Below are positions 1 to 49,849 of a stretch of DNA of 64,000 nt, piece by piece (the first letter of the stretch is position 1; each line of letters opens with the position of its first letter). The translations under genes were made by a program, and so were the position numbers. The notes beneath the pieces were generated by a model. That model had not been told where the DNA came from, did not search any database, and saw only the letters and a program-made list of their open reading frames with translations. This stretch comes from Escherichia coli (GTDB lineage: Bacteria > Pseudomonadota > Gammaproteobacteria > Enterobacterales > Enterobacteriaceae), in the NCBI RefSeq assembly GCF_013122565.1, contig NZ_CP053258.1; one strand, 5' to 3'.

Positions 1-1
1 T

Positions 2-1054
2 TATGGTTCCTTCTATCTGAATGGGACCTGGACGGACTACTGGGTTACGAATGAATCACAGAGTAGTTTTGCGTTTGGTTACAGCAACGGCTTTGACTGG
101 GCCAGCTACAGCGTCAGCCTGCAACGAACCTATGATGAAGACAATAACAAAGATGACTCTATCTATCTCAGCTTGACCATCCCGCTGGACAAACTGTTTG
201 GCCGCGATAGCCGCGAAGGGGGCTTCAGAACGCTCAATACCAGTGTCAACAGCGATATGAAAGGCAGCTCGCAATATAACGCTAACGCCACCGGCTACAG
301 CCAGGACAACCGCTGGAACTACAGCGTCAACACCTCCTATAACGCAATGAAAGAGACGGAGAGCCTGAAAACCATCAGTGGTTTCACCAGCTATGAGTCC
401 CCCTGGGGAACCCTTTCCGGTTCCGTCTCCGCCAGTAGCGACCACAGTCGTCAGTATGGCGTGAGTACCGATGGCGGCTTTGTGCTACATCGCCACGGGC
501 TCACGTTTAGCAACGATAGTTTCACCGACTCAGACACGCTGGCGCTGGTCAATGCCCCCGGCGCGAAAGGGGCGCAAATCAACTTTGGCAGCAGTACCGT
601 GGACCGATTTGGCTACGGGGTGACCAGTGCGCTTTCTCCGTATCACGAAAACACCGTCGCCCTCAACGTAGACAACCTGGATGAAGATGTAGAGCTAAAA
701 AGCACCAGCACCGTTGCGATCCCACGCCAGGGTGCCGTTATCTTCAGCCATTTCGACACTGACACCGGGCGTTCCGCCATTCTTAACCTGCTGCGCAGTG
801 ATAAACAGCCCGTACCGTTTGCTTCCGATGTCACGGACAGCCGTGGGCAGTCCATCGGCACGGTTGGGCAAGGGAGCCAGGCTTTCGTTCGCGGCATTGC
901 CGACGAAGGGGATCTGGTGGTTTCCTGGTATGAAAAAAATAGCCAGAAACAGTGTCGCATTCACTACCAGATACCGCCCTCTCCCACCATGACGGGCAAA
1001 ACTATCGTATTAAACGCCGTGCCCTGCACCCTGCAATCACAGGAGAGGAAATGA
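2..1054 (+). CDS. htrE: Outer-membrane fimbrial usher, C-terminal part (5' end lies upstream of the window)
   Basis: Frame is open from position 2 with no stop before the ORF-track start at 173; translation resembles usher C-terminal domain; followed by fimbrial subunit genes. Confidence 0.85.
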   Translation, partial: YGSFYLNGTWTDYWVTNESQSSFAFGYSNGFDWASYSVSLQRTYDEDNNKDDSIYLSLTIPLDKLFGRDSREGGFRTLNTSVNSDMKGSSQYNANATGYSQDNRWNYSVNTSYNAMKETESLKTISGFTSYESPWGTLSGSVSASSDHSRQYGVSTDGGFVLHRHGLTFSNDSFTDSDTLALVNAPGAKGAQINFGSSTVDRFGYGVTSALSPYHENTVALNVDNLDEDVELKSTSTVAIPRQGAVIFSHFDTDTGRSAILNLLRSDKQPVPFASDVTDSRGQSIGTVGQGSQAFVRGIADEGDLVVSWYEKNSQKQCRIHYQIPPSPTMTGKTIVLNAVPCTLQSQERK

Positions 1055-1623
1055 GATTCTTTTTACGGTTAATCCTGTTACTGACGACGCTGCTCAATGC
1101 CTCGTGGGCGTTGGCCGTCAATATTTCGGTTAACTTTACCGCGACGATCAAAGAGACCACCTGCGCCATGACGGTGAGCGCACTCAATGGCGCGAATCTT
1201 AGCGGTGACTCGGCATCAGAGAACTACTTTCTGGATTTACCCACAATGGGGGTTTCCGATATCACCAATAAAACGTCCAAAACCGAAGCCAGCTTTAAGC
1301 TATTACCGATTAACTGTAATAACTACATCTCCAGCATGTCGATGACCATTGGCGGTAAACACAGCGGTTATACCGACACGTTGCTGGTGAATGATTCCTC
1401 GGTTACAGGAGGAGCCAGTTACATTGGCGTGGGCTTTAAACGGCTTAATGACGATGACAGCCTGCGGTTTAAGGTGGATGGAACGACGTCAATTAACTGG
1501 ACACGCAATGACATTGCCAATGGATTTGATATTACTGGAATAGTTCGCCGGACAACGAGTTCTTACAACATGATACCCGGTCTGGTTCAGACAAAAGCGA
1601 TATTCGTTTTTACTTATAACTAA
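1051..1623 (+). CDS. yadM: Fimbrial subunit-like protein
   Basis: ATG at 1051 overlaps htrE stop (ATGA), preceded by GGAGAGGAA SD; signal peptide MRFFLRLILLLTTLLNASWA; ORF-track start 952 judged over-extended. Confidence 0.8.
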   Translation: MRFFLRLILLLTTLLNASWALAVNISVNFTATIKETTCAMTVSALNGANLSGDSASENYFLDLPTMGVSDITNKTSKTEASFKLLPINCNNYISSMSMTIGGKHSGYTDTLLVNDSSVTGGASYIGVGFKRLNDDDSLRFKVDGTTSINWTRNDIANGFDITGIVRRTTSSYNMIPGLVQTKAIFVFTYN

Positions 1624-1635
1624 CAGGGATGGTGT

Positions 1636-2232
1636 ATGAATTATCAACGCATAATTGTAGCGCTATTGTTAATCATCGGAATAAATACGCAATGCCTGGC
1701 TGGCTCCAGTTCGTTGAACGTGACGGTGAGGACAACCGTTACCGCCAGTACCTGCACAGCAGAGCTTCACAATGCGCAGGACCTGCAAGCGACAACAATT
1801 GATATTGGTGATGTCTATCTGAACGAACTTGCAAATAAGACTAAATATCAGAATTTCAGCCTGGTGTTTTCAAATTGTGAAGGCTTAGCCAAAGATCAGG
1901 CGACCGTCACACTTTCTCCGCAAACAGGCTGCGATGGTGCATCCAGTACGGGTGGCGGATTTCGCAACGCACTGGCCTCCAGCGACAATGATGCGGCAAC
2001 CGGCGTATCGATTGAAGTATGGACGACCAATCAGCCGGAAGGTCAGGGAAGTGTGCAGCTAAACTGCAAGACAAAACCGACCAGTATTGTCGATCTGACG
2101 GGCGCGTCAGGTGCGAACGTTGTCCACTGGTGGTTAAGCTCCAGAATTGTCGTCGCCGCGGATAACACTATCGCCGATGTACGTGCAGGGCAGTTCTCCA
2201 CCAACGCTGTCTTTTCAGTAACCTATGAGTAA
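1636..2232 (+). CDS. yadL: Fimbrial subunit-like protein
   Basis: 198-aa ORF with signal peptide, fimbrial-subunit-like C-terminus (VFSVTYE), operon context. Confidence 0.8.
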   Translation: MNYQRIIVALLLIIGINTQCLAGSSSLNVTVRTTVTASTCTAELHNAQDLQATTIDIGDVYLNELANKTKYQNFSLVFSNCEGLAKDQATVTLSPQTGCDGASSTGGGFRNALASSDNDAATGVSIEVWTTNQPEGQGSVQLNCKTKPTSIVDLTGASGANVVHWWLSSRIVVAADNTIADVRAGQFSTNAVFSVTYE

Positions 2233-2238
2233 ACGACG

Positions 2239-2811
2239 ATGAAATCACGTTTTCGACTGTTCGTTTCCGGCTTATGGTTTATTACAGCGGCCTGTATTGC
2301 CAACACCAATATTAATATGACCGCCAACGTTGTCAGCACCAGTTGCAAAGTCACCCTCGACAATAGCGGCAGCATTGATTTAGGCACGGTTAATTACGAC
2401 TATCTGAACACGAATACTGCCGTGGATCGCGTTTATACCGGTGGTCAGGCGTTCTACATCACCGTCAGTGACTGCGCGCAGATGGCGGGTAAAAATCCTT
2501 CCCGTCTTACGGTGAGTTTTACGCCCGTCGGGGGTACCCTCGGCGCAACTAATCAACAGGTTTTTGCCAATCAGGCAGCCGATGGCGCTAAAAACGTCGG
2601 CATCGTAATTTTATCCACCCAGGATGCGCAAAGTATTTTCAATGTGCTGGATACCCACGGCCAATCGCAAAGTATTTACCCCGTGAGCGCGGATCAGCTA
2701 GCCAATGCCACCTACCATTTTTATGCACGGATGCAGAAGATCGACCTGGCGCAAGCCGCCACCAGCGGTGTAGTGCGGGCCAGTGTGTTTGTCGGTGTTT
2801 ATTATGAATAA
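2239..2811 (+). CDS. yadK: Fimbrial subunit-like protein
   Basis: 190-aa ORF with signal peptide and C-terminal VFVGVYYE strand typical of chaperone-usher pilins. Confidence 0.8.
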   Translation: MKSRFRLFVSGLWFITAACIANTNINMTANVVSTSCKVTLDNSGSIDLGTVNYDYLNTNTAVDRVYTGGQAFYITVSDCAQMAGKNPSRLTVSFTPVGGTLGATNQQVFANQAADGAKNVGIVILSTQDAQSIFNVLDTHGQSQSIYPVSADQLANATYHFYARMQKIDLAQAATSGVVRASVFVGVYYE

Positions 2812-2837
2812 CGTTTTACGTTCTCAAGGATGATGAA

Positions 2838-4058
2838 ATGAACCGTTTCCGATTACTAAAATGGGTCAAAACTCTGCTGATTTTGCTGCCCATATATTCA
2901 GGCTATCTCCAGGCTGCAAATACACTGGTTGTCGGCAGTAAAGCTACCGCTGACGGTAATGGTAGTAATAAAAACAAAGGTCCCGCTGGTGATGGTTATT
3001 CCACAACCACTTTTACCACTGGCAACAGTCAGATAGTGATCGGGCGGGCTACAACTCTTCAATACAGTAATATTAAGCTACAGTTGCAAGCCGATACCGC
3101 AGGGAATGGCAATACCGGCGCGATTTACTGCGCACCGGGCGGCATGGGGGGGCCTATTACCCTGGAGAGTCATTTCCTTAAAGCACCCTACGTTTTTGAT
3201 AACCACCAGCTCTTTAAAACCAACATACAAGGGCTGTATTTCACCATGCGCATGTATAATCTCTGGTCATACGCCACCTCTTCACCGGATGACTTTTATG
3301 TCGGGGATGCCGAGCAACAGACGCTTAACTTACACTCAACGAGCTGTCCAGGCGATCTTGGCTGGTATCAACAGCTTGGCGGTCTGGTCTCTAATATTGA
3401 TATCGACTTTTATAACGACGCTACCTTTGACCCCAGCGCCAGCGGCAGTATTGCCCTGCTGAGTGATACCACCTATCACTACTCACTGAAAAACCTGTCC
3501 CCCGGGGGAAATCTCAATACCCATACTATTTTCCAAACCTTCAATATGGGGAATGTCACATTAACCTCTCCAACCTGTTCGTCGGCGATACTCTCCGGCA
3601 ACAGCGTCAGTAAAGGCGATACGGTAGGACTGGGCGAATACAGCTCGAAAGAGGTTATCGACGGCCTGAGCGGCGTGCCTTTTTCAATTGTGCTGAAAGG
3701 GTGTTATCGGGTAACAAATATTGATGTCAAACTGACCACGGGAGCCCCTGCGGTATCAACGTCACTATTGGGCAACTCGCTGACAACCGATGCCGCCAGC
3801 GGTGTCGGCGTAGAAATTAAAGGCGAGGCCAACTCGCATTATCCTGAAGTGGTGCTCAAGCCAAACGACGCCTCCTCAATCTATAAAGCGTATGGCGATA
3901 ACCCGGAAACCTCTAACGGTATTATTGGTAACAATGCTTCGGGTTCGCCTGCTGACCAGACGCTGAATTTTACCGCGACGCTCAAGCAGGATGGTAATCA
4001 GCAAATCCGGGGAGGAGAGTTCAAAGCAACGGGCGTCTTCTCCATCACTTACCCCTGA
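2838..4058 (+). CDS. yadC: Fimbrial tip adhesin-like protein
   Basis: 406-aa ORF, signal peptide, two-domain size typical of tip adhesins, pilin-like C-terminus (VFSITYP). Confidence 0.8.
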   Translation: MNRFRLLKWVKTLLILLPIYSGYLQAANTLVVGSKATADGNGSNKNKGPAGDGYSTTTFTTGNSQIVIGRATTLQYSNIKLQLQADTAGNGNTGAIYCAPGGMGGPITLESHFLKAPYVFDNHQLFKTNIQGLYFTMRMYNLWSYATSSPDDFYVGDAEQQTLNLHSTSCPGDLGWYQQLGGLVSNIDIDFYNDATFDPSASGSIALLSDTTYHYSLKNLSPGGNLNTHTIFQTFNMGNVTLTSPTCSSAILSGNSVSKGDTVGLGEYSSKEVIDGLSGVPFSIVLKGCYRVTNIDVKLTTGAPAVSTSLLGNSLTTDAASGVGVEIKGEANSHYPEVVLKPNDASSIYKAYGDNPETSNGIIGNNASGSPADQTLNFTATLKQDGNQQIRGGEFKATGVFSITYP

Positions 4059-4175
4059 GTAAAATACCGGCAGCTAACCCTGCCGGTTTTGACCACAAAG
4101 GGCTAACACTCATCACCCACATCCCCTACAATGCCCTCATACTATTGATGATATTTATGGCTAACAGGGGTTATG

Positions 4176-4970
4176 ATGAAACCGACCACCATCTCCTTAT
4201 TGAACAAATACAAACAAGAAAAAAAACGCTTCGCCACCATCACAGCCTACGACTACAGCTTCGCCAAACTGTTTGCCGATGAAGGGCTGAACGTGATGCT
4301 GGTAGGTGACTCACTGGGCATGACGGTTCAGGGCCACAACTCCACCCTTCCCGTTACCGTCGAAGATATCGCCTATCATACCGCTGCCGTACGTCGCGGT
4401 GCGCCAAACTGCCTGCTGCTGGCTGATCTGCCGTTTATGGCGTATGCCACGCCGGAACAAGCCTTTGAAAACGCCGCAACGGTTATGCGTGCCGGTGCCA
4501 ACATGGTCAAAATTGAAGGCGGTGAGTGGCTGGTAGAAACCGTACAAATGCTGACCGAACGTGCCGTTCCTGTATGTGGTCACTTAGGTTTAACCCCACA
4601 GTCAGTGAATATTTTCGGTGGCTACAAAGTTCAGGGGCGCGGCGATGAAGCGGGCGATCAACTGCTTAGCGATGCATTAGCCTTAGAAGCCGCGGGGGCA
4701 CAGCTGCTGGTGCTGGAATGCGTACCGGTTGAACTGGCAAAACGTATTACCGAAGCACTGGCGATCCCGGTTATTGGTATTGGCGCAGGCAACGTCACTG
4801 ACGGGCAGATCCTCGTGATGCACGACGCCTTTGGTATTACCGGCGGCCACATTCCTAAATTCGCTAAAAATTTCCTCGCCGAAACGGGCGACATCCGCGC
4901 GGCTGTGCGGCAGTATATGGCTGAAGTGGAGTCCGGCGTTTATCCGGGCGAAGAACACAGTTTCCATTAA
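4176..4970 (+). CDS. panB: 3-methyl-2-oxobutanoate hydroxymethyltransferase (ketopantoate hydroxymethyltransferase)
   Basis: Recognised PanB sequence (MKPTTISLL...EEHSFH); start taken at second Met, alternative ATG at 4173. Confidence 0.95.
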
Positions 4971-4981
4971 GGAGTCACGTT

Positions 4982-5833
4982 GTGTTAATTATCGAAACCC
5001 TGCCGCTGCTGCGTCAGCAAATTCGCCGCCTGCGTATGGAAGGCAAGCGCGTGGCGCTGGTGCCTACCATGGGTAACCTGCACGATGGCCATATGAAGCT
5101 AGTCGACGAAGCCAAAGCCCGCGCCGATGTGGTCGTCGTCAGTATTTTCGTTAACCCGATGCAGTTCGACCGCCCGGAAGATCTGGCTCGTTATCCACGG
5201 ACCTTGCAGGAGGACTGCGAGAAGCTAAACAAACGTAAAGTAGATTTAGTTTTCGCCCCTTCGGTAAAAGAGATCTACCCGAACGGTACAGAAACCCACA
5301 CCTATGTTGATGTTCCTGGTCTTTCCACCATGCTGGAAGGTGCCAGCCGTCCGGGACATTTTCGCGGCGTTTCGACTATTGTCAGCAAGCTGTTCAACCT
5401 GGTCCAGCCGGACATCGCCTGCTTCGGTGAAAAAGATTTTCAGCAACTGGCGCTGATCCGCAAAATGGTTGCTGATATGGGCTTTGATATTGAGATTGTC
5501 GGTGTGCCAATTATGCGCGCCAAAGACGGTCTGGCGCTGAGTTCCCGTAACGGTTATCTGACGGCGGAACAACGTAAAATTGCGCCCGGTCTGTACAAAG
5601 TTTTAAGTTCGATTGCCGACAAATTGCAGGCTGGCGAACGGGATCTCGATGAAATTATTGCTATTGCCGGGCAAGAACTGAATGAAAAAGGCTTCCGCGC
5701 CGATGATATTCAGATTCGCGATGCCGACACGTTGCTGGAAGTCTCTGAAACCAGCAAACGGGCAGTGATTCTGGTAGCCGCCTGGCTTGGCGATGCCCGC
5801 CTGATCGACAACAAAATAGTCGAACTGGCGTAA
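4982..5833 (+). CDS. panC: Pantothenate synthetase
   Basis: Recognised PanC ([18 protein letters not shown]...); GTG start 11 bp after panB. Confidence 0.95.
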
Positions 5834-5839
5834 TACTTA

Positions 5840-5875
5840 ACTGGCGCTACGGCTGATGGCGCCAGTTATTAATTT
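5840..5875 (+). terminator. Candidate intrinsic terminator after panC
   Basis: Inverted repeat ctggcgc...gcgccag (5841-5847 / 5859-5865) followed by T-rich tract, immediately after panC stop. Confidence 0.5.
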
Positions 5876-5928
5876 GCCCTACGTCATGGCGATGACGTCT
5901 GTAAGTGATTATTCATATCGCTGGCAAT

Positions 5929-6110
5929 TTAGTTAGAGTTAATTAGCTTATCAATCTCTGTAAGAGGTAAAGTTGTCACCTCTGCAACGTCTTCCCGAGA
6001 CATCCCTTTACTTAGAAAACGCTGGGCGAATTCCTGTCTTACCTTCTGGAGTTCCTCTTGATATCCCTTCTGAAATCCCTTCTCTTCAAACCACTGCGCC
6101 AACGTCTGCC
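5929..6110. repeat. Copy 1 of tandemly duplicated rpnC 3'-end (tail-encoding) segment
   Basis: About 85% nucleotide identity to 6207..6360 by eye, with 6-bp and 24-bp indels. Confidence 0.7.
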
Positions 6111-6138
6111 TGGTTTCTCTCCGTGTCTTTATTTCCAT
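5929..6138 (-). CDS. Orphan 69-aa ORF homologous to the C-terminal tail of RpnC (free-standing Rpn tail-domain-like small protein); coding status unproven
   Basis: ATG at 6136-6138 with AAGGGA upstream; protein ...TLAQWFEEKG...KGMSREDVAEVTTLPLTEIDKLINSN parallels RpnC tail ...TLAQWFEERG...KGMSREDVAEMANLPLAEIDKLIN; underlying DNA is a diverged tandem copy of the rpnC 3' end. Confidence 0.4.
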   Translation of the reverse strand: MEIKTRRETRQTLAQWFEEKGFQKGYQEELQKVRQEFAQRFLSKGMSREDVAEVTTLPLTEIDKLINSN

Positions 6139-6206
6139 AGGTTCCCTTAATTATCTGGTCAGTTAACAATAACAATTATCTGGCTATAACTGATGATGCA
6201 GACAAC

Positions 6207-6360
6207 TTAGTTAATCAGCTTATCAATCTCGGCAAGGGGTAAATTTGCCATCTCTGCAACGTCTTCCCGAGACATTCCTTTATTCAGAAGACGCAGGGCG
6301 AATTCTTGCCTTTCCTCCTGTCTTCCCCTCTCTTCAAACCACTGCGCCAGCGTCATCATA
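6207..6360. repeat. Copy 2 of tandemly duplicated tail-encoding segment (the native rpnC 3' end)
   Basis: Aligned by eye with 5929..6110 (shared ttagtta...cagcttatcaatctc...ctctgcaacgtcttcccgagacat...cgaattc...ctcttcaaaccactgcgcca). Confidence 0.7.
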
Positions 6361-7079
6361 GACTCCCCTCCCGTTTCCCTGTCTCTCAACACACTGTAAA
6401 ACAAATCCGCTTGTTCAGTATGACCGCGTTGCAGCATATAGTTTTGCATGGCAACTAACTGACTTCCGCTAGTGTACCCTTCGTCGATCAGCGTGACCAG
6501 TTGCTCCAGCAATAACATTAAGTCGCGCTGGCGAATATGTTTTTGCAGTAGTTCGAGAATCGCAATCCGCCGATGTTGCATGATTTCGTCATCCGGTGTG
6601 ATGGTGATATCCACCAGCGGGAAAGGACTGTTATAGACGCGTCGTGCCAGCTCCGGCGAGTAAAACATATCAAACCAGCACATTGAGAGCGGATAAGGTG
6701 TGGCCTCGCCCTGATAAAACAGTATCGGCACCACCAGCGGCAGCTTATCGTGATCCGCCTCCAGATGCCGGTGCATGGCAGCAATAGAATAACGCATCAT
6801 GCGAAAGGCCATTTTCTTATCCGGCTTGCTTTGGTGTTCAATCACAACATGCAGATAACCGGGATTGCCCTGCATTTGCACGGAATAGAGCACGTCCGTG
6901 CTGTGTCCTTTCAGGCTCTCTTCAATGAAACTCCCCGACTCTAAATGAAGCGTGTTGAGGTCACAAAGTTCGCGTAATTCCACTGGCAAATGTATCTCCA
7001 GAAAGTCGCGAGCCGTCTCCGCATGCATTAAAAATTGTTTAAATACCGCATCATGCGGTGTGGTACTCGGTGCATCCAT
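6207..7079 (-). CDS. rpnC: Recombination-promoting nuclease RpnC (YhgA-like, PD-(D/E)XK / transposase_31 family)
   Basis: Recognised YadD/RpnC-like protein; start set at MDAPSTTP (ATG 7077-7079); ORF-track start 7136 is an upstream in-frame alternative; internal in-frame Met-Met at 6354-6359 could start a 50-aa tail protein. Confidence 0.85.
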   Translation of the reverse strand: MDAPSTTPHDAVFKQFLMHAETARDFLEIHLPVELRELCDLNTLHLESGSFIEESLKGHSTDVLYSVQMQGNPGYLHVVIEHQSKPDKKMAFRMMRYSIAAMHRHLEADHDKLPLVVPILFYQGEATPYPLSMCWFDMFYSPELARRVYNSPFPLVDITITPDDEIMQHRRIAILELLQKHIRQRDLMLLLEQLVTLIDEGYTSGSQLVAMQNYMLQRGHTEQADLFYSVLRDRETGGESMMTLAQWFEERGRQEERQEFALRLLNKGMSREDVAEMANLPLAEIDKLIN

Positions 7080-7352
7080 CTTCCCTGCCTTCCGTGTTGT
7101 CTTGCGTGAAGGCAGTATCCAGTCAAGGTGTGCCATCGTCAGCCACCTCTTTAGTGTTTACCGAGCAGCGTTCAGAGAAATTTCAATTGGTTACAGGCGT
7201 TACATGGCACGCTTCGGCGCGGTACGCAAACTGCTGATGCAAATGCCGTCAGATGAGTAGACACTAAACAAAAATCGGGCAATACTGCGTGAGAATTTCC
7301 TCAAAGCAGGCACCGCCTGCTTCGTTAACGACAGGGTAGAAAGGTAGAAGTT

Positions 7353-7733
7353 ATGATTCGCACGATGCTGCAGGGCAAACTCCACCGCGTGAAAGTGACT
7401 CATGCGGACCTGCACTATGAAGGTTCTTGCGCCATTGACCAGGATTTTCTTGACGCAGCCGGTATTCTCGAAAACGAAGCCATTGATATCTGGAATGTCA
7501 CCAACGGCAAGCGTTTCTCCACTTATGCCATCGCGGCAGAACGCGGTTCGAGAATTATTTCTGTTAACGGTGCGGCGGCCCACTGCGCCAGCGTCGGCGA
7601 TATTGTCATCATCGCCAGCTTCGTTACCATGCCAGATGAAGAAGCTCGCACCTGGCGACCCAACGTCGCCTATTTTGAAGGCGACAATGAAATGAAACGT
7701 ACCGCGAAAGCGATTCCGGTACAGGTTGCTTGA
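7353..7733 (+). CDS. panD: Aspartate 1-decarboxylase
   Basis: Recognised PanD 126 aa ([30 protein letters not shown]...). Confidence 0.95.
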
Positions 7734-7736
7734 TTG

Positions 7737-8966
7737 TTATCCCTGCGGCTGGTTACTCACCAGCCGCGACATTGTCTCAAGAGAATCTGTTCTTAAGATA
7801 TAAAGTCGTTTTAGTAACAACGGATTATCCCCCGGTTTTACTTTGCCTTTCATGGTTGTCACCGCCAGGTGAAATCCGGCATCGTTTGCTGCCTTCACGG
7901 CTTTGTCATTAAATCCGCCAAATGGATACGAAAGATACCAGACATGCGGATTAAATTGCGCCAGAGCGCGGCGTGAACGTGCAAAATCAAACAGAATATT
8001 GTGCTCACTACGACTCAGTAATATAGGTCGCCGATAACCATCCACCCGATGCAAAAAATGGGTATGTGACTGGAAATCAAATACATCGCGAATTTCGTTA
8101 AGCTCAGAAACGCTCATAAATTGCAGCGATTTTGGGTCCCATTTCTGCGGGTGACGTTTGATGCGTGAGGTAACAATAAACGCCGTCGCCTTCATGCCAT
8201 ATTGTTTCAACACAGGATACGCATAGCGGCTCACCGACTTGAGGCCATCATCAAAGGTAATCACCACCGCTCGCGCAGGGAGATTGATCTTATTCTTCAC
8301 GTAACCTTCCAGCTGCGCCATGCTCAGTGTCGCGTATCCCCTGTCGCGCAGCCAGGCCATCTGGTTATTGAAAGCGCGTACCGAGGTGGTCGTCGAAGTA
8401 TGGCGAAAACGGGTGTTTTCTTCGTCGCGCAGAATATGGTGATAGGTTAGCACCGGCAGGCCATTATCGGGTTGAGCATCCAGCGCGCTGATATAGGCCA
8501 GTCGATCGCCAATACGAACCTGATACCAGGTTTGATTTAACCTGTCTTTCAGTTTATGCAAAATCGGGTAGCGCAAATTGTCCGCCAGTACCCCAAACGG
8601 CGCACTGCCCGCACTCGGCGCGTTATAGACTGGCGTATCTTTCCAGGTAACTAAGTTCTGATTACTCAGCGGCTTGTTGAGGTCACCCAAACCGTCTTCA
8701 ACTTTTTGTCGCCCCTGAACCGGCTCGAGATGCCCTTTATCGATAAACCCTTTACCAAAGCCAAAATTAAATGCGTAATAACTTGCGGCAGTGGGCTCCA
8801 CGGCAATGATTTGTCCGGCCCGAATATTCCCCACGGTCACCATCTTGTCACCAATTTGCGCCCAGACCGCAGCATTTTCGATGGTTTGCATATAACGGGC
8901 AGGTAACGCGGCACTGACACTTGCGGTAAACAGCATCAGCAGGAGAATAACAGCTTGTTTGTACAT
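7737..8966 (-). CDS. yadE: Predicted secreted polysaccharide deacetylase family protein
   Basis: 409-aa ORF with N-terminal signal peptide ([19 protein letters not shown]); C-terminal half resembles NodB-type deacetylase. Confidence 0.85.
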
Positions 8967-9029
8967 GAAAAAATAACCGAGGGTGAAACAACGCTTTTAT
9001 TGTAGCAAAAGCGCCATCAGAATCGCGGG

Positions 9030-9470
9030 TTAATACTCATACAAATTATGTTTGAGGACGAAAGGCGGATTTTTTTGTTGCTGGTGCCAAAGACTACTCA
9101 CCTCCGGCCCACCCAGTTCGACAATACGCTCGCGAAACTCTGAACTGGTCATGGTTTCACGGCAAGCCATCATCTGTTCAATTAACGGTAACGTGACACC
9201 AGAAATCACTTCGCAACGGGAGTGTTTGTGGCTTAATAATGAAGCCACGCGATACGGTGGCGCTCCGGCTATATCGGTTAAGAAGATGACACCCTCACCA
9301 GAGTCCGCTTCATGCAGAGCATCGCACATCATGCGGCTGAGCATATTAGAGCTTAACCCACGCCAGAAATTCACGGCCCGGCACTGAAGAAGTGCCCCAT
9401 GTTTTTTCTCCAGCGCATCCAGTATCTCTTGCGCCCGGTCATCGTGACAGGTAATTACCCAACCTAACAT
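9030..9470 (-). CDS. yadI: PTS enzyme IIA-like protein (mannose-family EIIA domain), orphan
   Basis: 146-aa ORF (MLGWVITCHDDRAQEILDALE...) typical of mannose-type EIIA; no IIB/IIC/IID partners adjacent. Confidence 0.85.
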   Translation of the reverse strand: MLGWVITCHDDRAQEILDALEKKHGALLQCRAVNFWRGLSSNMLSRMMCDALHEADSGEGVIFLTDIAGAPPYRVASLLSHKHSRCEVISGVTLPLIEQMMACRETMTSSEFRERIVELGGPEVSSLWHQQQKNPPFVLKHNLYEY

Positions 9471-9540
9471 CGCCTTCCTCCTTAGCCGAAAATCAGTCTA
9501 CCCTGACCATTGTTGATAAAGGGTGATAGCCGTCAAAACT

Positions 9541-9568
9541 CCTCTCCCCCAAATCCAGAGGAGAGGAA
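9541..9568 (-). terminator. Candidate terminator hairpin downstream of yadH
   Basis: Inverted repeat tcctctcc...ggagagga between yadH stop and yadI start. Confidence 0.35.
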
Positions 9569-9574
9569 ATAGCC

Positions 9575-42290: not shown

Positions 42291-42384
<94 letters not shown>

Positions 42385-42801: not shown

Positions 42802-42830
42802 AAAAAAGGCGCAGAATCCTGCGCCTTTTA
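42802..42830 (-). terminator. Intrinsic terminator downstream of secA
   Basis: Minus-strand aaaaggcgcag-gatt-ctgcgcc followed by tttttt, between secA stop and mutT start. Confidence 0.7.
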
Positions 42831-42846
42831 CTTCAACTGTTAGCTT

Positions 42847-45552
42847 TTATTGCAGGCGACCATGGCACTGCTTGTATTTTTTACCAGAACCGCACGGGCA
42901 AGGATCGTTACGTCCTACTTTGCGTTCACCGGTTTGCGCCGCCAGTGCAGCTGCGGCTGCAGAGTCGTCATCCTGATGGCTAAGCTGCTGCATTTGCGCT
43001 AAACGCTCGGCTTCCATACGACGCTGTTGTTCCAGCTCCTCAACCTCTTCAGGCATACGTACCTGAACTTTGCTCAGCGTACTGATAACTTCATATTTCA
43101 ACGACTCCAGCATCGCTGCAAACATGGAGAACGATTCACGTTTGTATTCCTGCTTCGGATCTTTCTGTGCATAGCCACGCAGGTGGATACCCTGACGCAG
43201 ATAGTCCATCGCTGCCAGGTGCTCTTTCCACAGGGAGTCAAGCGTTTGCAGCATGACGCCTTTCTCGAAGTGACGCATCATCTCAGCACCAACCACTTCT
43301 TCTTTACGCTGATACACTTCGATGGACTGCGCCAGAATGCGCTCACGCAGCGTCTCTTCATGCAGTTCGGGTTCTTTATCCAGCCACTCAGCAATTGGTA
43401 AATCGAGGTCGAAATCGTTCTTCAGACGTTCCTGCAGCCCCGGAATATCCCACATTTCTTCCAGCGACTGTGGCGGAATGTAGGCATCAATGGTGGCTTT
43501 GAACACATCTTCACGAATGCTGTTGATGGTTTCGCTCACATCGCTGACATCCAGCAGTTCGTTACGCTGGGAGTAAATGGCGCGACGCTGATCGTTAGCC
43601 ACGTCATCATATTCCAGCAGTTGCTTACGAATGTCGAAGTTACGGCTTTCAACTTTACGCTGGGCGTTGGCAATCGCTTTGGTCACCCACGGGTGTTCAA
43701 TGGCTTCGCCTGGCTTCATACCCAGTTTACGCATCATGCCGGATACTCGGTCGGAAGCAAAAATACGCATCAGCGCATCTTCCATCGACAGGTAGAAACG
43801 GGAAGAACCAGCATCCCCCTGACGACCAGAACGACCGCGCAACTGGTTATCGATACGACGGGATTCGTGACGCTCGGTACCGATGATATGCAGGCCACCT
43901 GCTGCCAGTACCGCATCGTGACGTACCTGCCAGTCGGCTTTAATTTTTTCAATTTGCTCTGCGGTCGGATTTTCCAGCGCGGCAACTTCTGCCTGCCAGC
44001 TACCACCGAGCACAATATCTGTACCACGACCCGCCATGTTGGTCGCGATAGTCACCGCAGCCGGATAACCTGCCTGAGCAACAATCGCCGCTTCGTTGGC
44101 GTGGAATTTGGCGTTCAGGACATTGTGCTTAATACCGGCTTTGGTCAGTTCGTTTGACACCAGCTCCGATTTTTCGATGGAGATAGTACCCACCAGCACC
44201 GGCTGGCCTTTCGCAGTACGTTCTTTGATATCTTCAATGATCGCCTGAATTTTTTCCGCTTCAGTCATGTAGACCAGGTCCGGCAAATCTTTACGAATCA
44301 TTGGACGGTTGGTCGGAACAACGACGGTATCCAGTTTGTAGATGGAGCTAAATTCGAAAGCTTCGGTATCAGCAGTACCGGTCATCCCCGCCAGTTTTTC
44401 ATACAGACGGAAGTAGTTCTGGAAGGTGATCGAAGCCAGCGTTTGGTTTTCGTTCTGGATCTGCACACCTTCTTTCGCTTCCACAGCCTGGTGCAGACCA
44501 TCGGACCAGCGACGGCCCTGCATGGTACGACCGGTGTGTTCGTCAACGATGATAACTTCACCATCTTTAACGATGTAGTCGACGTCACGGGTAAACAGCG
44601 CATGAGCGCGCAGCGCCGCCGTTACGTGGTGCATCAGCATGATGTTGGCCGGAGAGTACAGAGACTCCCCTTCATCCATGATGCCCTCTTTCACCAGCAG
44701 TTCTTCAATCAGCACCAGACCACGTTCGGTCAGGTTCACCTGGCGAGATTTTTCGTCCACCGAGAAGTGGCCTTCGCCCTGGAAGGTTTCGGAGTCTTCT
44801 TTTTCCTGACGGATCAGGTGCGGAATAATTTTATTCACGCGTTTATACATTTCCGAGCTGTCTTCTGCCGGGCCAGAAATGATCAGCGGTGTACGCGCTT
44901 CATCGATCAGGATGGAGTCCACTTCGTCCACCAGCGCATAGTGCAGTTTACGCTGTACACGTTCTTCAGGACTGAACGCCATGTTGTCGCGCAGGTAGTC
45001 AAAGCCGTATTCGTTGTTCGTACCGTAAGTGATGTCAGCTGCGTAGGCTTCACGCTTTGCCGGTGCTGGCATGCCCGGCAGGTTGATACCGACAGTCAGG
45101 CCAAGGAATTCAAACAGTGGACGGTTGTTTTCGGCGTCACGTTGCGCCAGGTAGTCGTTGACGGTAACTACATGCACACCTTTACCGGTTAGTGCGTTCA
45201 GGTAAGCAGGCAGCGTTGCGGTCAGGGTTTTACCTTCACCGGTACGCATTTCGGCGATGCAGCGTTCGTTAAGAACCATACCGCCGAGTAACTGAACGTC
45301 GAAGTGACGCATACCAAAGACGCGCTTACTTGCCTCACGTACCACGGCGAAAGCTTCCGGGATCAGATTTTCCAGCACTTCGCCTTTTTCCAGACGCGCA
45401 CGAAACTCTGCGGTTTTCCCTTTCAGTTCTTCGTCGGAGAGTTTTTCCATCTCCGGTTCCATGGCATTGATGATGTTGACCACTTTGCGCATCCGGCGCA
45501 GGGTGCGATCGTTACGACTACCGAAAACTTTAGTTAATAATTTGATTAGCAT
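42847..45552 (-). CDS. secA: Preprotein translocase ATPase SecA
   Basis: Recognised SecA 901 aa ([26 protein letters not shown]…) with C-terminal zinc motif [14 protein letters not shown]. Confidence 0.97.
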
Positions 45553-47374: not shown

Positions 47375-48526
47375 TTAATCAGCTTGCTTACGCAGGAATG
47401 CTGGGATATCCAGATAATCCGGCTCTTTCGCAGTTTGCGGCGCATTGTCATTCACGACTTTAGCAACCGGCTTCTGCTCCTGGGTCAGCGGAGCCATCCC
47501 GTGCTGCTGGTAGCGATCCATCACTGGCTGCTGAACCTGCTTATTGGTCACCAGAGTGATTTCAGGACGTTTGTCCATGCCGATACCTGTCGCAACAACA
47601 GTTACGCGCAGCTCGTCATTCATATCCGGGTCAAGAGAAGTACCGATAACCACGGTCGCGTTGTCGGAAGCAAATGCACGGATGGTGTTACCTACCGTTT
47701 CGAACTCATCCAGACGCAGGTCGAAGCCCGCCGTGATGTTAACCAGCACGCCGCGCGCGCCAGACAGGTCGATATCTTCCAGCAGCGGAGAAGAGATAGC
47801 CATTTCAGCAGCTTCTTCCGCACGGTCTTCACCGCTCGCCACGCCAGAACCCATCATTGCGTAGCCCATTTCAGACATTACGGTGCGTACGTCTGCGAAG
47901 TCCACGTTCATCAAACCCGGACGAGTAATCAGTTCAGCGATACCTTGCACAGCGCCTTTCAGTACATCGTTCGCTGCGCCAAACGCATCCAGCAGGGAGA
48001 TACCGCGGCCCAGAACTTTCAGCAGTTTGTCGTTCGGGATAGTGATCAGAGAGTCCACATGCTTGGACAGTTCAGTGATCCCCTGCTCCGCGAATGCCAT
48101 ACGCTTCTTGCCTTCAAAGTTGAAAGGCTTAGTGACGACAGCAACGGTCAGGATACCCAAATCTTTTGCCACTTCAGCGACGACTGGTGCTGCCCCTGTA
48201 CCGGTACCACCACCCATACCCGCAGCAATAAAGACCATGTCTGCACCTTCCAGCGCCGCACGCAATGCATCGCGATCCTCATCAGCCGCATTGCGGCCAA
48301 CTTCTGGATTAGCGCCAGCGCCCAGTCCTTTGGTGATACCGCTACCGATTTGAATCGTCTGTCCAACCGCTGTTTTACGCAGCGCTTGTGCATCGGTATT
48401 TACCGCGAAGAATTCAACACCTTCAATGCGCTCGCGCACCATGTGTTCAACAGCATTACCGCCGCCGCCGCCGACGCCGATGACTTTAATCACCGCGTCA
48501 TTGGTAAGTTCCATTGGTTCAAACAT
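47375..48526 (-). CDS. ftsZ: Cell division GTPase FtsZ
   Basis: Recognised FtsZ 383 aa; tubulin signature GGGTGTG. Confidence 0.97.
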
Positions 48527-48586
48527 AGTTTCTCTCCGATTTGTGCCTGTCGCCTGAGGCCGTAATCATCGTCGGCCTCATAAAAA

Positions 48587-49849
48587 TTAAAACTCTTTTC
48601 GCAGCCAACTATTGAGTCGCTTGATCCACGAGCCAACTGATGCTGTAACACGTTTTTCTACTTCAGCTTCACCGTTAAGATGTGACTCTTTCCCATAGTG
48701 AAGCAATCCCACCGCCGTCGAATAATACGGCTCCTGAGCATAATCCGTTAAACCGGTAATGTTCAGCGGCGCGCCGATACGCACTTGCGTATGAAACACG
48801 CGCTGAGCACAGGCTGCAAGACCTTCGATCTGCGCTGCGCCACCGGTTAATACAATGCCTGCCGCCAGGTGATGTTTAACCCCTTGTTGGCGAAGCTTTT
48901 CCTGCAACTGCAATATCTCTTCGTTGACCAGGTTGAGCAGCTCGGTATAGCGCGGCTCGATCACCTCTGCCAGGGTCTGACGTTGCAGACTCCGCGGCGG
49001 ACGACCGCCTACGCTCGGCACTTCCACGCTCTCATCTTTTCCAACGATGGAACCCAGCGCACAACCGTGGCGAACTTTAATCGCTTCGGCGTCGCTTGGC
49101 GGCGTGCCAAAGGCGTAAGCGATATCACTGGTCACGACATTGCCAGCATAAGGAATTACCTTAGTGTGGCGCAATGCCCCACCGGTATAAACGGCGATAT
49201 CCATTGTACCACCACCGATATCGACGACGCAGACACCCAGTTCACGTTCATCTTCCGTCAATACCGAATAACTTGATGCCAGTCCGGCAAATATCAGTTG
49301 GTCAACTTTCAGCCCACAACGTTCAACCGCTTTGACGATGTTTTTCGCCATATCGTTGTGACATGTGATCAGGTGCACTTTTGCCTGCATCCGCACGCCC
49401 GAAAGTCCTACCGGATTCTTGATCCCTTCCTGATAGTCAATCGCATACTCTTGCGGGATCACATGCAGCACACGATGCTCATCGCGCACACGCACCGATT
49501 TCGCGGTATGGACGACGTTTTCCACATCTTCTTGCGTCACTTCTTCTTCAGAAATAGGCACCATACCAATTTCATTCTGGCAGCTGATGTGCTTACCAGA
49601 AAGCGCCAGATATACCGAAGAGATCTGACAATCTGCCATCAATTCTGCCTGGTCAATGGCACGTTGTACGCACTTGACCACGGATTCGAGGTCGTTCACC
49701 CCGCCTTTATCCATACCACGCGACGGGCAGCTGCCCACGCCAATGATATTGACCATACCGTCGGGCAGAACTTCCCCTACTAAAGCGGCAACCTTCGCGG
49801 TACCAATCTCCAGTCCTACTACCAGTTTTCTGTCCGTCGCCTTGATCAT
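48587..49849 (-). CDS. ftsA: Cell division protein FtsA (actin-like ATPase)
   Basis: Recognised FtsA 420 aa ([27 protein letters not shown]…). Confidence 0.97.

Follow-up and report, generated by a model that had tools for sequence, protein, structure and literature searches.

An intact and rare Yad/Sta-family fimbrial operon of Escherichia coli, deeply diverged from K-12 Yad and probably exchanged with Pseudocitrobacter

Introduction

Yad fimbriae are regarded as a core, conserved adhesin of Escherichia coli and have been linked to colonization of the bladder and the bloodstream. This raises the question of what the yad locus, which lies between folK and panB in K-12, can carry from strain to strain. 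We investigated positions 1–4058 of a 64,000-nucleotide (nt) stretch of E. coli DNA (contig NZ_CP053258.1 of assembly GCF_013122565.1; the whole stretch is referred to as the window), which an initial annotation made from the sequence alone had read as the distal part of a chaperone-usher operon for fimbriae whose tip adhesin, yadC, has two domains. According to our analysis, this segment is likely to be the distal half of a Yad/Sta-family operon with its reading frames intact. The allele would be of a rare class with an ancient divergence (class IIIa), and the operon is likely to have been exchanged between genera. The finding refines known biology and is not a new kind of system.

Results and Discussion

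An Intact Operon at the yad Locus

All five reading frames of 1–4058 are intact and lie head to tail on the plus strand (Table 1). Their lengths equal those of the homologues in ET201, a genome carrying the same class, and in Pseudocitrobacter corydidari, therefore none of them is truncated. The neighbourhood agrees with the K-12 yad locus (folK-yadN-yadV-htrE-yadM-yadL-yadK-yadC-panB-panC-rpnC-panD) and is syntenic with K-12 and seven other E. coli, and the close-relative carriers of the operon show the same seven-gene order, N-V-usher-M-L-K-C, from folK to panB. The host is E. coli, as panD–yadE is 98.2% identical to K-12 and yadH–yadG 99.5% identical to Sakai at the nucleotide level. The initial description of a distal chaperone-usher operon end was thus borne out by locus and gene order, and its composition, an usher C terminus followed by three pilin-like subunits and an adhesin-like protein of 406 amino acids (aa), was confirmed by the reading frames and by Pfam. 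folK, the promoter, the major subunit and the chaperone lie outside the window, and the upstream half of the operon was read from same-class genomes as proxies; there, the chaperone is annotated as "fimbrial chaperone" in ET201 and matches PapD_N and PapD_C in P. corydidari.

The usher fragment matches the Pfam families Usher (PF00577, E value 2.5e-52, profile positions 312–549) and PapC_C (PF13953, E value 7.9e-21). Its best NCBIfam model is NF007337, with 513 bits versus 166 for the runner-up, and the full-length usher of ET201, which is 98% identical to that of the window, reaches 1354 bits with the same model (cut-off 830; K-12 HtrE, 1701). The fragment score together with the ET201 homologue places the usher in the HtrE equivalog group, and we infer that it falls in the gamma-4 clade. 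PF00419 scores above the gathering threshold in the three small pilins and in the adhesin. At the YadK position, the score with NF011794 exceeds the cut-off (205 bits, cut-off 132), and K-12 YadK matches this model as well. The top NCBIfam match at the YadM position is StaD, below its cut-off, as is also the case for K-12 YadM; at the YadL position it is the YadL model NF011797 (148.5 bits, cut-off 206), and at the YadC position a Yad/Sta model (275 bits, cut-off 382).

The four complete proteins each begin with a basic, hydrophobic and small-residue segment resembling a signal peptide, in agreement with the signal peptides proposed initially and, like those, read from the sequence. All four end in a C-terminal pilin motif with Gly at −14 and Tyr at −2. 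These ends had been described as donor-strand-like, a description that has to be corrected: the motif corresponds to the F strand bordering the acceptor groove, and the donor strands are the N-terminal extensions. Such extensions, with alternating hydrophobic residues, are found in the three small pilins (LAVNISVNFTATI, SLNVTVRTTVTA and NINMTANVV) and could act in this predicted role.

Divergence from K-12 Yad and Rarity of the Class

By locus, gene order and usher, the operon is assigned to the Yad/Sta family, in the form of a non-canonical allele. The K-12 and extraintestinal pathogenic E. coli (ExPEC) Yad operon, yadN-yadV(ecpD)-htrE-yadMLKC, which is of gamma-4 type and the counterpart of Salmonella Sta, has the identical locus, order and gene sizes (PMC3559732); the usher of the window fits the HtrE equivalog model, and the adhesin can be aligned from one end to the other, retaining both disulfides. 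In contrast, the proteins themselves differ throughout, with aa identities of 56% (usher), 37–43% (pilins) and 42% (adhesin), and the operon has a guanine-plus-cytosine (GC) content of 50–51% versus 42%. Binding of xylose and annexin A2 and control by H-NS have been shown for class I proteins only.

This divergence has a practical consequence. The usher is 56–60% identical at the aa level to HtrE of K-12 and CFT073 and falls outside class I, for which HtrE is at least 80% identical to that of the reference strains. A 2026 survey required an HtrE identity of 80% or more to the protein of EC958 before a strain was scored as Yad-positive (PMC13245861). Given an usher at 56–60% to K-12 and CFT073 HtrE, a strain like the one studied here would very probably be scored as Yad-negative by that survey.

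To place the allele among its relatives, 5,426 complete E. coli genomes were searched. Megablast with 1–4200 gave eight full-length matches at 91–92% identity, which corresponds to a class IIIa frequency of 0.15%. When blastn was run with 1–2811, the same eight genomes matched at about 94%. Another 15, which carry a sister class, matched at about 74%, and all others matched 19% of the query only, inside the usher gene, at ~65%. For comparison, 3,250 genomes contain the 3′ 1,050 nt of the K-12 usher gene with an identity of at least 95% and 546 with 80–90%, and 417 contain the O157 Sakai version with at least 95%. There are several deep allele classes at this locus, and class IIIa is the rarest seen. 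Beyond the complete genomes, the protein clusters point to class III operons on hundreds of E. coli contigs. A further ~930 genomes (e.g., UPEC69) carry an usher that is not close to K-12, CFT073, O157 or class III and is ~71% identical to K-12, so at least one other common allele class exists at the locus.

Exchange between Escherichia and Pseudocitrobacter

The cluster of proteins at 90% identity to the adhesin includes P. corydidari (CP087880), whose operon is syntenic, with genes in the same order, and is the nearest relative of the one studied here. Comparing the window with P. corydidari, aa identity is 99% for the usher and 94%, 97% and 94% for the pilins at the YadM, YadL and YadK positions, respectively (94–99% over the operon), and nucleotide identity is 90–98% over 1–4243 and 66–89% thereafter. 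P. corydidari differs in being another genus, with flanks at about 78% nt identity, and in having its own extra major-subunit-like gene upstream. When ET201 is compared with P. corydidari, a block of high identity (92–100%) extends from the start of yadN to the start of panB between flanks at 70–85%; inside this block, the lectin segment of the adhesin falls to 69–88%. The synonymous divergence (dS, Nei-Gojobori) between the window and P. corydidari is 0.10–0.28 in the operon genes versus 1.14 in panC. Two Pseudocitrobacter species are 86–99% identical to each other in the flanks and 58–85% in the operon. Because the operon is so much closer than its flanks in both nucleotide identity and dS, these data indicate that it has been exchanged between Escherichia and Pseudocitrobacter.

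A second case was found in E. coli N96 (locus 4287–12400) and P. vendiensis, which are 99.3–99.5% identical in the usher and pilin genes and reach 100.0% over the stretch that begins at the yadC stop, spans panB and enters panC. Their usher proteins are 100% identical, whereas folK and distal panC are at 72–87% nt identity. As judged from these identities, N96 and P. vendiensis represent a second, independent inter-genus exchange at the locus. P. faecalis has its own version of the operon at about 74% nt identity. In all, three Pseudocitrobacter species carry class III-like operons in syntenic position. A scan of the GTDB representative genomes with one protein returned the P. vendiensis locus alone, by a peptide-pattern method that misses distant alleles, and a literature search for Pseudocitrobacter and fimbria yielded nothing relevant.

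Allelic cassette replacement through homologous recombination in the flanks is familiar from the E. coli O-antigen rfb, fliC and fimA/fimH variants. The yad locus resembles these systems in having deeply diverged alleles at one site and sharp breaks of identity in conserved flanking genes. It differs in that the unit is a seven-gene fimbrial operon and that the allele is shared with another genus. Our comparisons indicate that all seven genes are exchanged together, as one cassette, through homologous recombination in their conserved flanks. As the near-identical cassettes of Pseudocitrobacter show, such recombination can carry a whole fimbrial operon from one genus to another without a mobile element.

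Junctions and Direction of Transfer

The right-hand end of the exchanged unit could be narrowed down. The yadC–panB spacer is 38% identical to K-12 and 88.5% to P. corydidari. Over the first ~120 nt of panB, identity is 83.5% with K-12, compared with 95.8% for both P. corydidari and P. faecalis. Taken together, the spacer and the 5′ ~120 nt of panB are 88–98% identical among class III genomes and 38–85% identical to K-12. This tract follows the operon class and not the genus, which places the right junction at about 4059–4302. On the left side, the folK–yadN spacer of ET201 shows no useful similarity to the K-12 and Pseudocitrobacter spacers, so that this junction could not be narrowed down in the same way. 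We also observed that panB of the window starts with ATGATG at 4173–4178 (MMKPTT..., compared with MKPTT in K-12), and that the aa differences of PanB from K-12 are confined to the first ~65 residues (Q10N, D55N, A63E), in or beside the class-linked 5′ tract.

To assess the direction of transfer, we used diagnostic sites that have one base in common in K-12, CFT073, Sakai and E. albertii and another base in P. faecalis. Essentially all 148 panB–panC sites carry the Escherichia-type base in the window, ET201 and LHM10-1 (in the window from panB nt 127 on), and ET201 and LHM10-1 are also Escherichia-type at essentially all 120 pcnB–folK sites, which lie outside the window. In P. corydidari, seven of the first eight panB sites (nt 127–291) are Escherichia-type, one is of neither type and none is Pseudocitrobacter-type; the sites thereafter are Pseudocitrobacter-type. 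P. vendiensis follows the N96 pattern up to ~1045 of the panB–panC alignment (~240 nt into panC), and its folK is mostly Escherichia-type. The pattern of panB diagnostic sites suggests that Escherichia was the donor; GC content and third-position GC did not discriminate between the donor genera.

The opposite direction, i.e., a cassette native to Pseudocitrobacter that was imported into a few E. coli lineages, is unlikely in view of these sites. It would account for the rarity of the cassette in E. coli, for the syntenic class III-like operons in three Pseudocitrobacter species, and for the start of panB, where the first ~120 nt in the window are nearer to P. corydidari and P. faecalis than to K-12. 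It is tempting to speculate further. Class III operons are found in E. coli, E. albertii and Pseudocitrobacter, and the class-linked 5′ end of panB is shared with P. faecalis. Class III, with its host-like GC content of 50%, might be ancestral between folK and panB, the AT-rich, H-NS-silenced Yad operon of K-12 and ExPEC a later xenologous replacement that spread through most of E. coli, the class III adhesin a binder of a different receptor, and the locus an exchange point for entire fimbrial cassettes among enterobacterial genera. We offer this scenario tentatively, as one that is doubtful as a whole.

A Two-Domain Tip Adhesin

What would this operon place at the tip of the fibre? The 406-aa protein has no N-terminal extension, which fits the expectation for a tip subunit. 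Its ~230 N-terminal residues have no match in Pfam, and when its sequence was searched against PDB chains, the pilin domain gave no more than weak matches of FimF type (E value about 0.015) and the N-terminal domain none. The AlphaFold2 model of the whole adhesin has two beta-rich domains and a predicted local distance difference test (pLDDT) score of 86.9; the N-terminal domain modelled alone scores 91.9. When the model was compared with the PDB using Foldseek, FimH, FocH, LpfD, CupB6 and PapG ranked at the top with alignments covering both domains, thus supporting a two-domain tip adhesin at the level of the predicted fold. The predicted N-terminal beta-sandwich receptor-binding domain, as well as the predicted C-terminal pilin domain without a donor strand of its own, are features of the solved two-domain tip adhesins FimH, LpfD, UclD, F17-G/GafD, AtfE, MrkD and PapG.

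The adhesin aligns end to end with K-12 YadC, and two cysteine pairs are invariant in 31 homologues. The name yadC therefore stands by position and full-length homology, although not in the sense of a canonical yadC, since identity to K-12 is 42% overall and 30% in the lectin domain. In the NCBI database, the exact protein is WP_171459827.1, "fimbrial protein [Escherichia coli]". D-xylose and annexin A2 have been reported as ligands of class I YadC (PMC13245861, PMC6921372), and no ligand-binding site has been defined for YadC, K-12 included (PMC13245861). With the sequences at hand, the ligand of the window's adhesin cannot be inferred from class I YadC.

Based on the family, the usher would assemble the fibre at the outer membrane, with the 406-aa protein entering first and remaining at the tip. 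Its N-terminal beta-sandwich domain would bind the receptor, and its C-terminal pilin domain, an incomplete immunoglobulin fold, would be filled in by the N-terminal extension of the subunit that follows. As for the three small pilins, they may form a tip fibrillum or serve as adaptors between the adhesin and the rod of major subunits, which are encoded upstream of the window.

Among the members of the adhesin's protein cluster, VTQ30555.1 (95% identical) is labelled as Streptococcus pneumoniae on a 3.5-Mb contig. This entry has almost certainly been mislabelled or is contaminated.

Maintenance of the Operon

It could be argued that the operon is a silent relic and that fimbriae are no longer made from it. 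Yad fimbriae are repressed or cryptic in laboratory culture (PMC3559732, PMC13245861), and in two E. albertii genomes the class III-like yad operon found at this locus has a damaged usher frame (~5560–8220), the frame being interrupted in L012 (longest open reading frame 519 aa) and ending early in L013. However, the five frames of the window are intact and of homologue length, and the ratio of nonsynonymous to synonymous divergence (dN/dS) is 0.01–0.30 in every operon gene. Such values point to continued purifying selection, and thus to genes that are maintained and not decaying, which makes a relic improbable.

The initial annotation regarded the operon as usually cryptic in the laboratory and as derepressible through H-NS. 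Such crypticity and silencing by H-NS have been documented for the AT-rich class I operon (PMC3559732, PMC13245861). The GC content of the operon is 42–43% in class I and 49–51% in class III (50–51% in the window). The spacer upstream of the major subunit has 27.5% GC in ET201, which is of the same class, and 26.6% in K-12.

Variation and Selection in the Lectin Domain

The initial annotation expected the tip adhesin to be the most variable element of the operon, with diversifying selection on its lectin domain. The first expectation holds: the N-terminal domain of the adhesin is the least conserved part, both within class IIIa and against K-12 (30%), and a variable YadC lectin domain has been described in published surveys (PMC13245861). 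Compared with ET201 in 60-nt windows, identity is 58–87% across 2838–3440 and 85–97% afterwards, whereas comparison with P. corydidari gives 80–97% across 2838–3440 and 80–100% throughout the adhesin gene. For the pair of the window and ET201, dN and dS are 0.118 and 1.24 in the lectin domain (ratio 0.10) and 0.016 and 0.21 in the pilin domain (ratio 0.08). A crude averaged dN/dS of 0.10 at a dS of 1.24 gives no sign of diversifying selection. Because the divergence of the lectin segment carries saturating synonymous change, it points to old sequence that was probably acquired by recombination among old alleles and kept under purifying selection; within the class, the lectin segment itself would thus be shuffled between old alleles.

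These values also bear on the possibility that we are dealing with an ordinary E. coli yad operon whose differences arose by positive selection on the tip adhesin. The locus and gene order are the same, and the lectin domain is the least conserved part of the operon and is variable in the published survey as well. In contrast, all genes including the usher (56% aa identity) are deeply divergent from K-12, synonymous sites are saturated between classes, the lectin dS and dN/dS within the class are as given above, and the class occurs in only 0.15% of genomes, all of which leaves this explanation very improbable. An assembly chimera or contamination with Pseudocitrobacter DNA, to which the near-identity with another genus might be attributed, is practically negligible, as the same arrangement is seamless in eight independent complete E. 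coli chromosomes, the junction lies inside a continuous spacer–panB 5′ tract with identity to K-12 rising stepwise, and the window differs by 4–6% from every Pseudocitrobacter sequence.

Strength and Implications of the Reading

Several points weigh against reading 1–4058 as the distal half of a class IIIa Yad/Sta operon exchanged between genera. The structural evidence for the adhesin consists of predicted models and not of solved structures. The YadL and YadC positions score below the NCBIfam equivalog cut-offs, therefore functional equivalence with K-12 Yad (binding of xylose and annexin A2) cannot be assumed, and identity to K-12 in the lectin domain is just 30%. The direction of transfer relies on eight sites, with P. 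faecalis as the single "pure" reference for Pseudocitrobacter. Only one genome stands for P. corydidari, and the small number of further Pseudocitrobacter entries, all members of database clusters, were left out of the analysis. Moreover, the promoter, the major subunit and the chaperone are outside the window, and assembly and receptor binding of class IIIa fimbriae are predictions from the family.

The window shows that the yad locus can carry an intact and very different operon, and surveys based on identity thresholds miss such operons. Because the operon is so different and the head of the adhesin only 30% identical, the receptor specificity, anti-adhesin compounds and prevalence established for K-12, CFT073 and EC958 are not transferable to strains of this kind.

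Gene Layout and Other Features of the Window

The coordinates of the operon, its adhesin domains and the adjacent elements are collected in Table 1.

Table 1. Features of the fimbrial operon and its 3′ flank, with amino acid identity to the K-12 counterparts
Feature	Position	Strand	aa identity to K-12	Remarks
Usher, C-terminal 350 aa, HtrE position	2–1054	+	56%	Usher and PapC_C; gene start upstream of the window
Minor pilin, YadM position, 190 aa	1051–1623	+	38%	PF00419, E value 2.8e-7; ATGA overlap with usher stop
Minor pilin, YadL position, 198 aa	1636–2232	+	39%	PF00419, E value 6e-7
Minor pilin, YadK position, 190 aa	2239–2811	+	43%	PF00419, E value 3.6e-14
Predicted two-domain tip adhesin, YadC position, 406 aa	2838–4058	+	42%	PF00419 covers residues 255–405 only
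Adhesin signal peptide, residues 1–26	2838–2915	+		
Adhesin receptor-binding (lectin) domain (predicted), residues 27–240	2916–3557	+	30%	
Adhesin pilin domain, residues 241–406	3558–4055	+	53%	
Mosaic segment of the adhesin gene (signal peptide and most of the lectin domain)	2838–3440	+		Window differs here from the more common class allele of E. coli; downstream, the window, ET201 and P. corydidari are 88–100% identical in 60-nt comparisons
Right-hand junction zone (yadC–panB spacer and ~125 nt of the panB 5′ end)	4059–4302	+		Moves with the operon class
GC-rich hairpin, probable operon terminator	4066–4091	+		ACCGGCAG-CTAACC-CTGCCGGT, then TTTT; 8 nt past the adhesin stop
panB	4176–4970		99%	Directly 3′ of the operon
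panC	4982–5833		99%	Follows panB

The hairpin downstream of the adhesin gene is probably the terminator of the operon. In the terminator scan, its stem was flagged on the minus strand, and the T run on the plus strand (four T) fell under the threshold of the tool. Counts from the promoter and terminator scans were no more than two standard deviations above those of shuffled controls, and this hairpin is the sole element that was retained. An Rfam scan of 1–4058 gave no RNA family. Elsewhere in the window, matches at the Rfam gathering level were obtained for tp2, naRNA4, STnc40 and PssrA at 30916–31029 (+), 42304–42381 (−), 42802–42871 (−) and 48518–48607 (−), respectively, none of them in or near the fimbrial operon.

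Beyond panC, an open reading frame of 69 aa (5929–6138, minus strand) lies beside rpnC (6207–7136, minus strand) and corresponds to the C-terminal helix-turn-helix part of an Rpn-family nuclease. It matches TIGR01784 at positions 213–273 (E value 2.8e-8) and is about 79% identical at the nucleotide level to the 3′ end of rpnC, which indicates that it is a partial tandem duplication of that gene. K-12, LHM10-1 and N96 lack this frame, while its annotation is "transposase" in ET201 and pseudogene in CFT073.

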